DNA of 64,000 bases from an uncultured bacterium (lineage in GTDB: Bacteria > Eisenbacteria > RBG-16-71-46 > CAIMUX01 > WJJG01). Positions 12,718 through 19,445 of this stretch are shown here, in pieces (within the stretch, counting starts at the first letter, position 1; every line of letters begins with the position of its first letter). Below the pieces are notes generated by a model that saw nothing but the letters and a program-made list of their open reading frames with translations, was not told where the DNA came from and did not search any database. A program made the translations under genes and the position numbers. The stretch spans positions 5,761 through 69,760 of the forward strand of contig CAZNJE010000022.1 in NCBI GenBank assembly GCA_964573295.1. Reading direction: 5' to 3'.

Positions 12718-12725
12718 GATAAGCT

Positions 12726-12822
12726 GGCGGGAACGTGTGGGAATCGAACCCACCCTGGACGTGCACGACGCCCAACACAGGCTTTGAAGGCCCGGGAGCC
12801 CACCAGGACCCATTCGCTCCCT
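12726..12822 (-). tRNA. selC: tRNA-Sec (anticodon UCA), selC-like, 97 nt including encoded CCA
   Basis: The reverse complement folds exactly like E. coli selC. It has an 8-nt acceptor GGGAGCGA/ACGTTCCC. A 2-nt linker and a 6-bp D-stem GGGTCC/GGGCTC with 4-nt loop TGGT follow. The anticodon stem CGGGC/GCCTG has loop CUUCAAA, identical to the selC loop, giving anticodon UCA. A 24-nt variable stem-loop GGGCGT/ACGTCC follows. The T-arm is GTGGG-TTCGATT-CCCAC. G73 and CCA end the molecule. Confidence 0.7.
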
Positions 12823-15272: not shown

Positions 15273-16856
15273 TCAGCCTCCCGGATGTTCCAGGAGATCG
15301 GCGACCTTGCGCACCCGCGCGCGCGCCCGTTGCGCTGTCGTGGCTTCGGCGATCAGGCGTACAATGGGTTCGGTGCCCGACGGGCGAATGTGGATCCACT
15401 CGTCCTCCCACGACCAGCGCAAACCGTCTTCGGTATTCTCAGGGACTCCGAAGGCGCCGAGCAGTTCCTCCCACAGATGCTCGCGTTCGGCGTCGCCGAG
15501 GGTGAGCTTCTCCTTCACCATGGCCCGTGCCGGGAGCGTCTTCCAGGCATCTCGCAGTCCACCGCGGCCCTTCCGGCCGGCCGAACCGTAGCTGGTCTCG
15601 AGCTGCAGCAGCAGCGCGGCCGCGACACCGGCATCCCGTCCCAGGTGTACGGCCGGGTCGATCACGCCACCGTTGCCTTCGCCTCCGAAACGCGCCTCCT
15701 CGACCAGCATGCACGAGACGACATTGGCTTCTCCCACCGGAGCACGGCGTACCGTGCAGTCGTAGCGGGAGGCGACGATCTCGAGCCACGCCGAGGTCGA
15801 GAGATTCGTCACTAGCGTGCCACGCATACCGCCCTCGAGCCGCGCCATCGCGCACAGCGGCAGCGTGCCCTCTTCGCCAACCGTGTCCTCCGGAAGGACG
15901 AAAGCGCAACGATCGCCATCGGGGTCCGATGCGAATCCAAAGTCGGCGCCTTCGGCCCGTACGCGCTCGCGCAGCGGCTCGAGCATCTCCCGCCGTGGTT
16001 CCGGATGGGCGGGCAGCGCCCCATTCGGTTCACCGTGGATCCAAATGCTTTGGACTCCCAGTTCCTCGAGCAGGGGCGCGATCAACACCTGCCCGGCACC
16101 GTGGACCATGTCGGCGACCACCTTCAGCTTCGATGCGCGGATGCGCTCGGTGTCGATCGTGGCGGTGATCAGATCGATATGGCGCGCGATGGCTTCGGCG
16201 CCCGCGGGCGTGGTTGGAGCCGATTCATCGGATGGGGTCGCCGTACCTGACGAAGCCGAAGTGTTCACCGCCGCGGCACTCGCGGTCGAGACATTCACCG
16301 CCGCGGCACTCGCCGCTGAGGCATTCGACTCTGAGGCATTCGACTCTGAGGCATTCGCCTCTGCGGTGTCGCCGGCAAGGAAATGGTCCAGCAGGGGCCG
16401 CATCCGTGTCCGGTCCAGAAAGCGCCCATCGGGCCCCACGAACTTGAGCGCGTTCCAGGCCGGGGGATTGTGGCTGGCGGTGATGATGATGCCGCCGACC
16501 GCGTCTCCGTGTTCAACGGCCACCTGGACGGTCGGGGTCGGCACGATCCCCAGGTCCGTCACCTGACAGCCCCGCTCTTCGAGAACTCTTCGGGCAGCCG
16601 TCGCGAAAAGGGGCCCGCTGGGCCGGGAGTCGCGGCCCAGCACGACCGTCCCGCAACCGACCACGCTCGCAAACGCCGCGGCCAAGCGCCGCGCCACCGA
16701 TTCATCCAGCCCGTCCCCCACGATCCCACGAGCGCCCGAGACGCTCAGCACCAGCGTTGGCACGATGTCAGCCTCCTCATCACGCAGAACCGGTTTCTCT
16801 CCGTCCAGATTGCTCTCGGAATCCCCTATCCAATCACGCGCCCTGCCGCAGCGCAA
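15273..16856 (-). CDS. glmM: Phosphoglucosamine mutase / phosphohexomutase (GlmM-like) carrying a ~55-aa Ala/Ser/Asn low-complexity insertion
   Basis: The active-site loop GIIITASHNPPAWNALKF is present. The N-terminus reads SGARGIVG, matching the GTDGIRG motif. The C-terminal domain 4 is present. The start codon is uncertain. The insertion FLAGDTAEANASESNASESNASAASAAAVNVSTASAAAVNTSASS... is encoded by tandem DNA repeats at 16262-16360. Confidence 0.7.
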   Translation of the reverse strand: MRCGRARDWIGDSESNLDGEKPVLRDEEADIVPTLVLSVSGARGIVGDGLDESVARRLAAAFASVVGCGTVVLGRDSRPSGPLFATAARRVLEERGCQVTDLGIVPTPTVQVAVEHGDAVGGIIITASHNPPAWNALKFVGPDGRFLDRTRMRPLLDHFLAGDTAEANASESNASESNASAASAAAVNVSTASAAAVNTSASSGTATPSDESAPTTPAGAEAIARHIDLITATIDTERIRASKLKVVADMVHGAGQVLIAPLLEELGVQSIWIHGEPNGALPAHPEPRREMLEPLRERVRAEGADFGFASDPDGDRCAFVLPEDTVGEEGTLPLCAMARLEGGMRGTLVTNLSTSAWLEIVASRYDCTVRRAPVGEANVVSCMLVEEARFGGEGNGGVIDPAVHLGRDAGVAAALLLQLETSYGSAGRKGRGGLRDAWKTLPARAMVKEKLTLGDAEREHLWEELLGAFGVPENTEDGLRWSWEDEWIHIRPSGTEPIVRLIAEATTAQRARARVRKVADLLEHPGG

Positions 16857-16990
16857 GAAGCAGGGCGCGTGATGGCTGGACCGCCATTCGCCGGTTCCTT
16901 CCTCGCACAGGGGGGGCTAGTCTCGTGTGGGGGGTAAATCTCGTGAGCGGTGCCGATTCTTGCGCTCACATCCGAGCAGGTGAGGAACCC

Positions 16991-17638
16991 ATGCCCAGGA
17001 CGGAATCCTTCGAGCGCCACGTGGATCGCTACGACACATGGTTCGAACGTAACCGAAGCCTCCATCAAGCCGAGCTGGCGGCCGTCCGGGCGCTCATGCC
17101 CACTGCGCCGGGCATGAGCGTGGAAGTCGGTGTCGGGACGGGCCAGTTCGCCGCCCCGCTCTCGATCGGGACGGGCATCGAGCCCTCGGCGGCCATGGCG
17201 GCCCTGGCCCGGGCGCGCGGGATCCGAGTGTGCCGGGGCGTTGCCGAAGGCCTTCCTTTCGCAAACAACAGCTTCGCCCTTGTGCTCATGGTCACGGTCA
17301 TCTGCTTCGTGGATAACCCACTCCAGTCCCTACGGGAAGCCTACCGCACGCTGCGCCCGGGAGGCGATTTGCTCGTGGGATTCATCGATCGCAACAGCGA
17401 GCTGGGACAGGCCTACCAGGCGAGCGCTCGGACCAGCGACTTCTACCGCGACGCGCGCTTCGTCTCGGGAAGAGCTGTTGCGCGGCTGTTCCGAGATGCG
17501 GGATTCGGTGAGGTGCGTTTCAAGCAAACATTGATGCCGCGCCAAGCCCCTCTATCCCTGCGTGATGGCTTCGGGCAGGGAGCATTCGTGGTGGGACGAG
17601 GGACGAAGCTGCCTCAAGAAACCACGCCGGTGGCGTGA
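16991..17638 (+). CDS. Class I SAM-dependent methyltransferase (Methyltransf_11-like)
   Basis: The ATG at 16991 is preceded by GAGGAA. Motif I is SVEVGVGTGQFAAPL. The post-I acidic residue and LRPGGDLLVGF (motif-II-like) are present. Confidence 0.75.
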   Translation: MPRTESFERHVDRYDTWFERNRSLHQAELAAVRALMPTAPGMSVEVGVGTGQFAAPLSIGTGIEPSAAMAALARARGIRVCRGVAEGLPFANNSFALVLMVTVICFVDNPLQSLREAYRTLRPGGDLLVGFIDRNSELGQAYQASARTSDFYRDARFVSGRAVARLFRDAGFGEVRFKQTLMPRQAPLSLRDGFGQGAFVVGRGTKLPQETTPVA

Positions 17639-17679
17639 TACGTGTGAGCAACGTAGCGGCCGGCTCCGGTTGCTACCGC

Positions 17680-17689
17680 TTCTGCTACC
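17680..17689. repeat. Left copy of the 10-bp direct repeat TTCTGCTACC flanking the hicBA islet (an additional TTGCTACC copy at 17670-17677)
   Basis: Identical 10-mers lie at 17680-17689 and 18646-18655. The ~960 bp between them has visibly lower GC than its surroundings. Confidence 0.5.
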
Positions 17690-17824
17690 GTACTATGGTC
17701 AATCGGGTTCACTAGTGTCCACCGGTGTTCATAGGGCAGCCTGGCTCTGGCATCTGGCTCTGGCATAAGGAGAAGCCCGCAACCGAACTCGAGGCGCAGA
17801 GCGAAGCCGACAGGAGCAGAGACG

Positions 17825-18056
17825 TTACAGCACTCCCTTTGGAAGATTGAAGCGGCGGACCAGAGCCGAGATGATGCCAACAGAGATTACTGCCTTGCGC
17901 CCATGGACTGGAATGGGAATCGACGCGGCCCTCCCATGAATGTCTGGGTGGTATACCACCACGTGGCTCCCTTTTCCACGATTAGCCCAAAACTCGAAGC
18001 GTTGATCGTGCTTTGCGAGTTTCTTTTGCAGCTGCCTGAAAGTGTAGCTCTTAGGC
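17825..18056 (-). CDS. hicA: Type II toxin-antitoxin system HicA-family toxin (mRNA interferase)
   Basis: The ATG is at 18056 (MPKSYTFRQLQKKLAKHDQRFEFWANRGKGSHVVVYHPDIHGRAASIPIPVHGRKAVISVGII...). It has the HicA signature G-x-GSH...H-P....IP.HG.K.I..G. It is 77 aa and overlaps the hicB stop by 6 nt. Confidence 0.75.
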
Positions 18057-18398
18057 ATTTGCCTCTGCGAAGTTGAGTTTCCGCGGCTGCGGCACTGGGA
18101 TGTTGGCCAGCTGGAAACCTGCCTCCTGGTGCGTGTGTGGGAATGAAGCAAGGATCTCCCTTGAGATCTGCTCGAATATGGCGAACAACTCGGGTGGAGC
18201 TGGATGGCTCAGCAGCTCCGACTGATCCTGACGATACGCAAAGCTAACCTGAAGAGCAATGGCATCCTTCAGCTCGTCAAGAGCAGCCTCGAAACTCCGT
18301 CCTTCTCCGATTAGATCCATCTCCAGGCAGTGAGCAGTCCATTTGCGACCTTGCTTATACCCAAGCACACGCAAATTGAGGTTCACCTTGTTGGACAT
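18051..18398 (-). CDS. hicB: Type II toxin-antitoxin system HicB-family antitoxin (UPF0150-like N-domain)
   Basis: The ATG is at 18398 (MSNKVNLNLRVLGYKQGRKWTAHCLEMDLIGEGRSFEAALDELKDAIALQVSF...). This is the HicB N-terminal RNase-H-like fold pattern. It lies immediately upstream of and overlapping hicA. Confidence 0.7.
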   Translation of the reverse strand: MSNKVNLNLRVLGYKQGRKWTAHCLEMDLIGEGRSFEAALDELKDAIALQVSFAYRQDQSELLSHPAPPELFAIFEQISREILASFPHTHQEAGFQLANIPVPQPRKLNFAEANA

Positions 18399-18645
18399 TC
18401 GTCCCACTGTGCTGCCCCCTAGCCTTGGACGGCGCAGACGCCCCTTGCTGCTACCAACATCGACATTCTTGTTACGCATAGCTCTCCATCAAAGCGAAGC
18501 ATAGCACAATGGCCTGGACCTGCAGGGGAGCAACCAATATCTTCTTCGGTCGCCCCGCGGCCCCTCCCGATAGAAAATACCTCTGACCGCTGCGCAATGT
18601 TCATAGCCGGAATGCACCGCAGTCCACCTGCTCCACGTGCTGCCA

Positions 18646-18655
18646 TTCTGCTACC
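18646..18655. repeat. Right copy of the 10-bp direct repeat TTCTGCTACC (followed by TTTGCTACC at 18658-18666)
   Basis: See the left copy at 17680-17689. Confidence 0.5.
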
Positions 18656-18819
18656 AGTTTGCTACCAGTTTGCTGACAGAACCAAGGGAAATCACGTTGA
18701 ATCACGAGGAACCAGGGCGACACCGCCGCCTGCTTGCCTGCTCCCTTTGCGCCCGCGCAACTCATTGCAGGTCAGCGCAATAGCAAAGGGCGACGCCACT
18801 TCTGACGCCGCCCTCACGG

Positions 18820-18892
18820 AGCCGATGCGCGGACTCGAACCGCGGACCTGCTCATTACGAATGAGCTGCTCTACCAGCTGAGCTACATCGGC
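18820..18892 (-). tRNA. tRNA-Thr (anticodon CGU)
   Basis: The reverse complement is GCCGATGTAGCTCAGCTGGTAGAGCAGCTCATTCGTAATGAGCAGGTCCGCGGTTCGAGTCCGCGCATCGGCT. It forms a cloverleaf with anticodon loop UUCGUAA. CCA is not encoded. Confidence 0.85.
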
Positions 18893-18937
18893 AGGGAGCC
18901 CCCCGGACTCTCTCGAGCCCGAGGGGCATCCAGATCC

Positions 18938-19010
18938 TGTGGTGCCCCCCAGAGTCGAACTGGGGACCCCCAGATTTTCAGTCTAGTGCTCTACCAACTG
19001 AGCTAGGGCA
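18938..19010 (-). tRNA. tRNA-Phe (anticodon GAA)
   Basis: The reverse complement is GGTGCCCTAGCTCAGTTGGTAGAGCACTAGACTGAAAATCTGGGGGTCCCCAGTTCGACTCTGGGGGGCACCA. The anticodon loop is CUGAAAA. CCA is not encoded. Confidence 0.9.
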
Positions 19011-19055
19011 CCACATAATGCAAGAGCGGAGATTAAGATAACCTCCCTCGCAAGG

Positions 19056-19445
19056 TCAACCCACATTTTCATGCCGGCGTGTCGGTTCGGCGATCACCCG
19101 TTCCACGCAGCGCGCCAGCGCCAAGGGGTCGGATGACTTGGTCAACACCGCCCGCGCACCCCAGCAACCGAAGTCGTCGCAACAGTCCCAGGCCGCGGTG
19201 TGGATCACGACCGGCAGGTCGGCATCCAGCGACAAGATCCGGCCCAGAAGATCGACGCCACGCATGTCCGGCAAGCTCGAATCCAGCACGACCGCCACCG
19301 GCCGCCGGCCCCGCTCCATCGCTCTCAGGGCACCCCGGCCCGTGCCGACCCCGTGCACCGCGTAGCCGGCCCGCTTGAGACCGGCCGCGAAATGCGCCCT
19401 CGACTTCGGATCCCGGTCCACCAGCAGAATCTTGCCCCCAAGCAC
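19056..19445 (-). CDS. Single-domain response regulator (CheY-like receiver)
   Basis: A GTG start at 19445 is proposed, with AGGGAGG 6 nt upstream. The receiver motifs are KILLVDRD...LDSSLPDMRGVDLL...PVVIHTA. The long 5' part of the 249-aa ORF is likely not translated. Confidence 0.65.
   Translation of the reverse strand: MLGGKILLVDRDPKSRAHFAAGLKRAGYAVHGVGTGRGALRAMERGRRPVAVVLDSSLPDMRGVDLLGRILSLDADLPVVIHTAAWDCCDDFGCWGARAVLTKSSDPLALARCVERVIAEPTRRHENVG

Follow-up and report, generated by a model that had tools for sequence, protein, structure and literature searches.

A class-2-like hicBA module, probably acquired horizontally, beyond a tRNA-Thr gene in Candidatus Eisenbacteria

HicA toxins have a fold resembling that of the double-stranded RNA-binding domain (dsRBD), and work on the HicA proteins of E. 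coli and B. pseudomallei has established that the histidine of the GSH motif is the catalytic residue. In the classical HicAB systems, which belong to classes 3 and 4 of Gerdes, hicA is located upstream of hicB. In class 2 the order is hicBA, and the HicB protein is small (63-103 codons) and has no DNA-binding domain (Gerdes 2024, mBio 15:e03293-23; PMC10865869). Classes 1 and 2 are the most prevalent HicA systems, class 2 not yet having been studied experimentally, and HicA systems have been proposed to act as anti-phage abortive-infection units (PMC10865869). Here we describe an antitoxin-first pair found in a 64-kb stretch of DNA (the window), whose phosphoglucomutase (PGM) protein places it in Candidatus Eisenbacteria. 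The pair consists of a hicB-like gene (18051-18479) followed by hicA (17825-18058), both on the minus strand, and lies in a stretch of low GC close to two tRNA genes. The best explanation overall, and in our view a likely one, is that the pair is a compact type II toxin-antitoxin (TA) module resembling class 2, which was acquired horizontally, was inherited vertically thereafter, and carries no demonstrable scar of its insertion.

Identity and class of the gene pair

The downstream gene encodes a protein of 77 aa with a GKGSH motif (His32). We read this protein as HicA because it matches, below the gathering score of 27, Pfam HicA_toxin (PF07927; E 2.4e-5, 24.8 bits) and PHROG 353, described as 'toxin' (E 2.1e-5), because it has the GKGSH motif, and because a fold search of BFVD matches its model to a phage 'HICA protein' (E 5e-6, TM 0.82/0.87, root-mean-square deviation 1.5 A, 40% identity). 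The AlphaFold2 (AF2) model has a pLDDT of 85.5 and an alpha-beta-beta-beta-alpha arrangement (H7-17, E22-26, E32-40, E43-50, H60-70). An identical protein, P0002, carries a precomputed PF07927 match, marked 'faint', and one homologue is named 'YcfA (HicA-like mRNA interferase)' by its JGI source. A search of NCBIfam left the protein unmatched. Judged by its profile matches and predicted fold, the 77-aa protein is a HicA toxin.

The closest relatives of this HicA are 53-57% identical to it. The residues H37 and H52 are invariant across the aligned family, and the motif histidine is not: all 10 close homologues in alignment A2 have GKGS-E at column 32, and GKGS-H is found in the window protein and in the homologue from the phage contig L035. 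This suggests that toxins of the GKGS-E clade are inactive or have their catalytic site arranged differently.

The upstream gene is preceded by a GGAGAG Shine-Dalgarno sequence and encodes 142 aa when read from the ATG at 18479, alternative starts being the GTG at 18407 (118 aa, the NCBI call) and the ATG at 18398 (115 aa). The protein has no match in Pfam, NCBIfam, PADLOC, PHROG or the sequences of the PDB. Its AF2 model, for which an alignment of homologues was used as input, again has a pLDDT of 85.5, and predicts a basic disordered N-terminal tail (residues 1-33) followed by a core (35-128) of the order beta-beta-beta-alpha-alpha-alpha-beta (E35-43, E46-51, E56-60, H63-83, H87-90, H96-111, E122-128). 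Only 14 residues follow the last strand, so that there is no further folded or DNA-binding domain. When the model was searched against the PDB using Foldseek, the matches ranked 1 to 10 were all HicB or HicB-like chains (probability 0.93-1.0, TM normalised to the target 0.43-0.70); the top matches (probability 0.97-1.0, E 7e-3 to 0.1) include 3kwr, 6g1c, 6g1n, 6g26 (B. pseudomallei), 5yrz (S. pneumoniae) and 4p78 (Y. pestis HicB3). In sequence, the protein is no more than 10-14% identical to the HicB structures that have been solved. The protein is therefore best modelled as the N-terminal domain of HicB without the helix-turn-helix (HTH) or ribbon-helix-helix (RHH) domain, an identity that comes from the predicted fold only.

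The family to which it belongs is not small. A word-indexed search returned one cluster at 95% identity, and an exhaustive phmmer search returned 643 homologues at 50% clustering, mostly of 110-145 aa and with the motifs AHCLEMDL..G.G.TF..A and PAP. Among these relatives, 7 of 73 weakly match DUF7387 in Pfam, and there are isolated sub-threshold matches to UPF0150-like and DUF1902 models; a profile search of the PDB with the family gave a weak match to 2yzt/TTHA1756 (E 0.37). For the HicB-like protein itself, no match was found by tblastn in the PLSDB plasmids or the INPHARED phages. A sizeable family of HicB-like proteins thus escapes current sequence models and is recognisable by its predicted fold only, and its invisibility matters for the annotation of TA and defence systems in metagenomes.

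The two genes overlap by 8 nt (ATGCCTAA, 18051-18058, minus), the stop of the first and the start of the second lying within the overlap. The ATGCCTAA overlap recurs in the homologous pair of contig L005. The same antitoxin-first pair is found more widely, in the contigs L004-L009 (metagenome contigs of saline-sediment type), where it has this overlap and a basic N-terminal tail on the first protein, its neighbours being genes for an rve_3 transposase and the reverse transcriptase of a group II intron; in the IMG/VR contig L035, between a gene for the terminase large subunit and a RadC-like gene; and in L036, a viral contig of 63.5 kb, adjoining a tail-fibre-like gene. The hicB-like gene is adjacent to hicA and co-oriented with it in the window and in L005, L006, L009, L035 and L036. 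The hicBA pair is a conserved module found in unrelated contexts.

The pair has much in common with class 2 hicBA: the antitoxin-first order, the overlapping genes, a partial RNase H domain as the only domain of HicB, the lack of a recognisable DNA-binding domain, and the frequent association with phages and variable regions. It differs from class 2 in having the basic disordered N-terminal tail, in an extra helical insert between alpha1 and beta4, in the failure of the Pfam and NCBIfam HicB models to match it, and in that the close HicA relatives are mostly GKGS-E whereas GKGS-H is canonical. The length of its HicB-like protein also differs, as discussed below. These are differences of a divergent member and not of a new kind. 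With the classical HicAB systems (E. coli K-12, B. pseudomallei 6g26, Y. pestis HicA3B3 4p78, S. pneumoniae 5yrz) it shares the predicted fold of the HicB N-terminal domain, the GSH histidine and the dsRBD-like fold of HicA, and the same expected mechanism, namely an RNase toxin held by direct binding. It differs from them in the missing C-terminal HTH or RHH, with no evident operator binding or conditional cooperativity, and in its gene order, which is the opposite. The original prediction, made from the DNA letters, had called antitoxin-first the rarer order; with class 2 among the most prevalent HicA systems (PMC10865869), this does not hold.

Setting and history of the locus

The segment at 17680-18655 (976 bp, including a decamer at each end) has a GC content of 0.556, which is the minimum for any 976-bp interval in the 64 kb (mean 0.657, standard deviation 0.027) and is visible as a dip in the sliding profile. 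At third codon positions (GC3) the hicB-like and hicA genes both have 0.60, compared with 0.76-0.81 for the neighbouring genes for a methyltransferase, PGM, a histidine kinase and a response regulator. Intergenic DNA is generally lower in GC throughout the window. The tRNA genes, which Rfam also matches, are tRNA-Thr(CGT) at 18818-18892 and tRNA-Phe(GAA) at 18939-19012, both on the minus strand, and 162 bp separate the right decamer from the 3' end of tRNA-Thr. Directly 3' of tRNA-Thr there is a hairpin resembling an intrinsic terminator (18786-18815, minus; -25.3 kcal/mol, z -3.1), followed by UUUGCUAUUG. Analogous hairpins are found in relatives; the tRNA operon natively ends here, and the hairpin separates tRNA-Thr from the foreign DNA. 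The elements named in the original prediction (repeats, gene pair, overlap and two nearby tRNAs) are all present where it had placed them, with the genes on the minus strand, and the sliding profile bears out its low-GC islet.

The locus was compared with that of nine family-level relatives (five genomes from GTDB and four metagenome contigs from JGI), whose PGM is 31-66% identical. Each of the nine has tRNA-Phe and tRNA-Thr directly upstream of PGM, at a distance of 68-300 bp, and synteny is kept on both sides. In the window this spacer is occupied by a lineage-specific block of about 2.05 kb, extending from the start of PGM to the tRNA-Thr terminator (16764-18815). Besides hicBA, the block contains a gene for a class I S-adenosylmethionine-dependent methyltransferase of 215 aa (16991-17638, plus), which is convergent with hicA, has a host-like GC3 of 0.76, and is missing from the spacer of the family-level relatives. 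Apart from an identical protein, its homologues do not exceed 56% identity and belong to other phyla. Horizontal acquisition of hicBA is supported, because the GC3 of the genes is foreign and the pair is absent from nine otherwise syntenic relatives. The original prediction of foreign composition and of acquisition beside a tRNA gene therefore stands, the spot downstream of tRNA-Thr being empty in all nine. What was gained, though, is larger than the segment between the decamers and is a mosaic in composition, pointing to two or more events at a single hotspot.

Contig L003 is from the same strain (100% identical); L033 (7.7 kb) and L034 are about 94-95% identical to the window, and L001 and L002 are 98-99% identical to L033. 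The gene order in L033 and L034 is that of the window: kinase, regulator, tRNA-Phe, tRNA-Thr, hicB, hicA, methyltransferase, PGM. At the nucleotide level the window and L033 are 94.2% identical in hicB and 91.2% in hicA; the comparison values are 92.1% in the methyltransferase gene, 91.8% in PGM and 96.0% in the histidine kinase gene. Because these identities match those of the flanks, the islet was present in the common ancestor and has diverged together with its surroundings, which counts against a recent insertion. The original prediction had named the same segment at the same place in relatives as an observation that would speak against it, and at the level of strains this is what L033/L034 and L001/L002 have. 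The dN/dS values against L033 are 0.09 for hicA and 0.18 for hicB (the methyltransferase has 0.30), and we conclude from the first two values that both genes have been kept by selection.

The toxin gene has nevertheless been damaged in three different ways among the sister strains. In L033 (L033:5499-5732) there is a premature stop, Q9* (CAG to TAG); in L034 (L034:2203-2376) the family-invariant histidine is replaced, H52L; and in L001 and L002 (L001:769-939) a deletion of 127 bp, corresponding to 17821-17948 (minus) of the window, removes the C-terminal two-thirds of the gene and its stop. The deletion was seen in two sequencing runs. In all sister contigs hicB is full-length (142 aa). This looks like decay of the toxin with retention of the antitoxin, as is usual for a real toxin.

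Border repeats and competing explanations

The decamer TTCTGCTACC occurs exactly twice in the 64 kb, at 17680-17689 and 18646-18655, and the octamer TTGCTACC only at 17670-17677 and 18659-18666, in agreement with the original prediction that each decamer is accompanied by an extra TTGCTACC. The left repeats (17670-17689, plus) consist of TTGCTACC, GC and TTCTGCTACC, and start 32 nt past the methyltransferase stop codon (17636-17638). They overlap a 10-bp hairpin found by RNA folding (GUAGCGGCCG/CGGUUGCUAC; 17653-17676, plus), which begins 15 nt past that stop and has the left TTGCTACC as its 3' arm. The hairpin is kept in L033 by means of a U-A to U-G change, and may be a 3' end or terminator element of the methyltransferase gene. 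On the right, there is an 11-nt tandem array (18638-18680, plus) with consensus TGCTACCAGTT and 3.4 copies at 18638-18674, which includes both the right decamer and the right TTGCTACC. In L033 and L001 this array is one unit shorter and has T>C changes; because an 11-nt indel between strains would shift any reading frame, the array is non-coding.

The repeats are also not preserved as repeats. In L033 the left repeats read TTGCTGCC..TTCTGCTACG, and on the minus strand its decamers are GGCAGCAGAA (right) and CGTAGCAGAA (left), which differ at 2 positions and have only AGCAGAA in common. Such divergence could have arisen by drift following an old duplication, but it leaves no sign of constraint. 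Exact direct pairs of 10-mers at a spacing of 300-2000 bp are common in the window (324 distinct pairs, about 5 per kb); in 13 of them the left copy lies within 16.5-19.5 kb, and 19 (6%) are accompanied by a shared 8-mer out of register. From the pair densities, the chance that an exact 10-mer pair brackets both genes within their non-coding flanks is estimated as 8-19%. The ends of the segment have no terminal inverted repeats (the test was trivial, with a score of 8 over 60-nt ends), no copy of the tRNA-Thr 3' end is present in 16700-18817 (exact matches to tRNA-Thr reach 8 nt at most, less than the mean of 8.9 for shuffled sequences), and no integrase, transposase or other recombinase gene lies in the block or its flanks. 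When folded as RNA, the repeat arrays and the hicA 3' region did no better than shuffled sequences. The breakpoints of the indels between strains (the 11-nt array unit, the 127 bp in hicA and a 291-bp segment) are all away from the decamers. We conclude that the decamers are units of short, slippage-prone tandem arrays, and that an insertion scar is not supported.

The original prediction went further, in treating the segment as a cassette bounded by a 10-bp target-site duplication or att-like repeats; in the form weighed here, the 976 bp would be a mobile cassette with TTCTGCTACC as the duplicated target or att-like core, inserted within an existing array of 11-12-nt repeats. Exact decamers do edge the low-GC stretch, each with its extra TTGCTACC; 5 of the 6 TGCTACC copies in the window fall in these two clusters; removal of the segment together with one decamer would leave a continuous array of about 5 units with a periodicity of 11-12 nt; and tRNA genes are nearby. 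The segment also shares with insertions of an insertion sequence (IS) or a miniature inverted-repeat transposable element (MITE) that generate a target-site duplication the short, exact repeats in direct orientation on its two sides. Against this, pairs of such spacing are unexceptional in frequency, 6% of them also having an out-of-register 8-mer, the right copy belongs to a tandem array that differs in copy number from strain to strain, the left TTGCTACC forms one arm of a hairpin tied to the methyltransferase 3' end, and the two decamers differ in L033. Terminal inverted repeats and a tRNA-derived repeat are both lacking, there is no transposase or integrase in the segment or its conserved flanks, the segment is single-copy within the window, and no empty site for such a cassette was found in the nine relatives or the three sister lineages. 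The decamers also fail as limits of what was gained, since the relatives lack the whole of 16764-18815, including the methyltransferase with its host-like GC, and this block reaches about 920 bp past the left decamer. We therefore consider such a cassette unlikely. That the segment is native, its low GC coming from small, weakly expressed genes and intergenic DNA beside tRNAs, is very improbable. The sister strains do have it at the same place with flank-like divergence, and intergenic DNA in the window is indeed generally lower in GC, but this reading is already largely refuted by a GC3 of 0.60 in both genes against 0.76-0.81 in all neighbours, by nine family relatives without the segment at a perfectly syntenic site, and by the nearest homologues of HicA (56%) and of the HicB-like protein (42-50%), which are found in unrelated mobile contexts.

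Two further readings concern what the module is. The 142-aa protein could represent an undescribed class of HicB that Pfam and NCBIfam miss, with the border arrays as real sites of recombination or protein binding; the class would have hundreds of members at 50% clustering, so far from uncultivated bacteria and viral contigs, and would be marked by a partial RNase H core with the extra helical insert, by a basic N-terminal tail that may stand in for the DNA-binding domain it lacks, and by a partner HicA that mostly has Glu for the GSH histidine. If this were true, arrays of GGTAGCA(G)AA with a period of 11-12 nt might move minimal cassettes having no recombinase of their own, but we regard this combination as highly doubtful. 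Alternatively, the pair may be an anti-phage abortive-infection unit in a hotspot of defence or variable genes, and not a classical addiction module, so that its loss tracks phage pressure. This has been proposed for HicA systems (Gerdes; PMC10865869), homologues do lie on viral contigs, and loss of the toxin is polymorphic among sister strains, as for costly defence genes; however, neither protein is matched by a PADLOC model, the adjoining genes include no further defence genes, and nothing at this locus separates defence from plain addiction or selfish persistence. We see it as a possibility, though not a strong one. An acquired class-2-like hicBA module remains the reading we favour, with several points weighing against it. 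The HicA score lies below the curated Pfam cut-off (24.8 vs 27), and searches of the PDB with its sequence, family profile and predicted fold gave nothing significant, the best Foldseek match to the model being a dsRBD at E 0.55. For the HicB-like protein, the Foldseek E-values are weak (7e-3 to 0.13), it is outside every curated sequence family searched, and at 142 aa (118 or 115 from the internal starts) it is longer than the 63-103 codons of class 2. Clustering of TGCTACC at the two borders (5 of 6 copies in the 64 kb fall within 17671-18660, in two small clusters) is beyond chance alone. The lesions Q9* and H52L come from contigs of about 4x coverage and are possible assembly errors. Lastly, neither a donor nor a close-range empty site was found, and it is for this reason that we infer the timing and route of acquisition. 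A site containing the methyltransferase only was sought through homologues of the methyltransferase, with the identical protein as the sole close match; and the contig of the closest GTDB genome, L010, is uninformative, since it stops within a tandem repeat, 45 nt short of the methyltransferase start.

Proposed working and minor features

By analogy with established HicAB biology (PMC10865869), HicA would cleave RNA independently of the ribosome by means of its GSH histidine, and the HicB core would pack its helix alpha1 on the HicA beta-sheet and so block the toxin by direct binding. In the model the 142-aa protein is essentially a partial RNase H N-terminal domain, which would neutralise HicA. 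The 8-nt ATGCCTAA overlap would couple translation of the two genes, such that the antitoxin is made first and in excess. As the antitoxin lacks a folded DNA-binding domain, autoregulation through an operator is not expected, unless its sole candidate nucleic-acid-binding element, the basic N-terminal tail, plays a part. Upstream of the hicB ATG, by about 20 nt, a candidate extended -10 element was noted by eye at 18498-18506 (minus), which reads TGCTATGCT (TGCTATACT in L033); a consensus scan called no full sigma-70 promoter upstream of hicB, and the promoter and terminator scan gave nothing useful for hicBA.

As to the history, an ancestor of this species-level lineage of Candidatus Eisenbacteria would have gained the module in the spacer between the tRNA-Thr terminator and PGM. 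The same spacer also appears to have gained the methyltransferase, of different composition, probably making at least two events. The gain would have been followed by vertical inheritance with purifying selection on both genes, and sister strains now seem to be losing the toxin again and again, with the antitoxin retained. Arrival within larger mobile DNA, associated with a phage or an IS and later whittled down, is the most likely route; homologous pairs are found in viral contigs and next to transposases. Compared with tRNA-linked islands, the locus is similar in its foreign composition, its position just past a tRNA 3' end, its absence from relatives and the TA module as a typical persistent remnant; it is unlike them in having no integrase and no repeat of the tRNA 3' end, in its size of about 1-2 kb, and in the tRNA terminator that lies between. 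It is most likely an ordinary horizontally acquired selfish module, for whose mode of arrival the 10-bp repeats are poor evidence. Of the original prediction, the acquired TA module is thus what remains, and the cassette bounded by a target-site duplication or att repeats and the unusual gene order do not. The value of the locus is that of a clean, ordinary example of a compact hicBA at a variable spot past a tRNA gene, in a candidate phylum that has been little studied, with population snapshots in which a toxin gene is destroyed in three different ways while its antitoxin survives. It raises no new mechanistic question, and the idea of flanking repeats, which would have been the interesting part, is unsupported.

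The 291-bp segment mentioned above is present in L033, L001 and L002 (L033:5764-6060), with flanks CTCGAG/CTCGCG, and corresponds to 17788-17793 of the window. Because L001 and L033 differ there by a 1-nt indel, it is non-coding; it is either a deletion in the window or an insertion in the sisters, possibly MITE-like. The tail of L001 was also considered as an inversion, but it has no similarity on either strand and is the 291-bp indel shared with L033. Non-coding DNA 3' of hicA also contains a perfect 13-nt tandem duplication (CTGGCTCTGGCAT x2; 17741-17766, plus), which is diverged in L033.

Several other candidates were set aside. Open reading frames of 54 aa and 75 aa on the minus strand across the right array are not coding, given the 11-nt indel in sister strains. 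The array unit CTGGTAGCAG (18638-18680, minus) resembles the tRNA-Thr D-arm CTGGTAGAGCAG (18860-18885), a likeness that was judged to be within chance expectation. An Rfam scan of 17400-19100 gave the two tRNAs, one spurious match and nothing else; the spurious match, 'Plastid-ycf2 5'UTR', is antisense to tRNA-Phe (18939-19012, plus) and scores 31.8 bits, below its gathering score of 65.7.

Beyond the pair, the divergent promoter region of PGM and the methyltransferase contains a tandem repeat of 18-20 nt (CACGAGA(C/T)...CCCC; 16911-16945), and it is inside a three-copy version of this repeat that the L010 contig breaks off (L010:1-60). The PGM gene itself (15273-16763, minus) has a low-complexity insert rich in Ala and Ser (ASESNASESNAS...AAAVNVSTASAAAVNTSASS), encoded by tandem repeats of 15 and 30 nt (16264-16363), which adds about 33 aa to the protein in comparison with relatives. 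Further on, at about 3.5-4 kb from PGM, lies tRNA-SeC(TCA) (12725-12821), whose position is kept in 6 of the 9 relatives, these being all whose locus extends that far. The interval from tRNA-Phe/tRNA-Thr through PGM to tRNA-SeC is a stable syntenic frame for Eisenbacteria.

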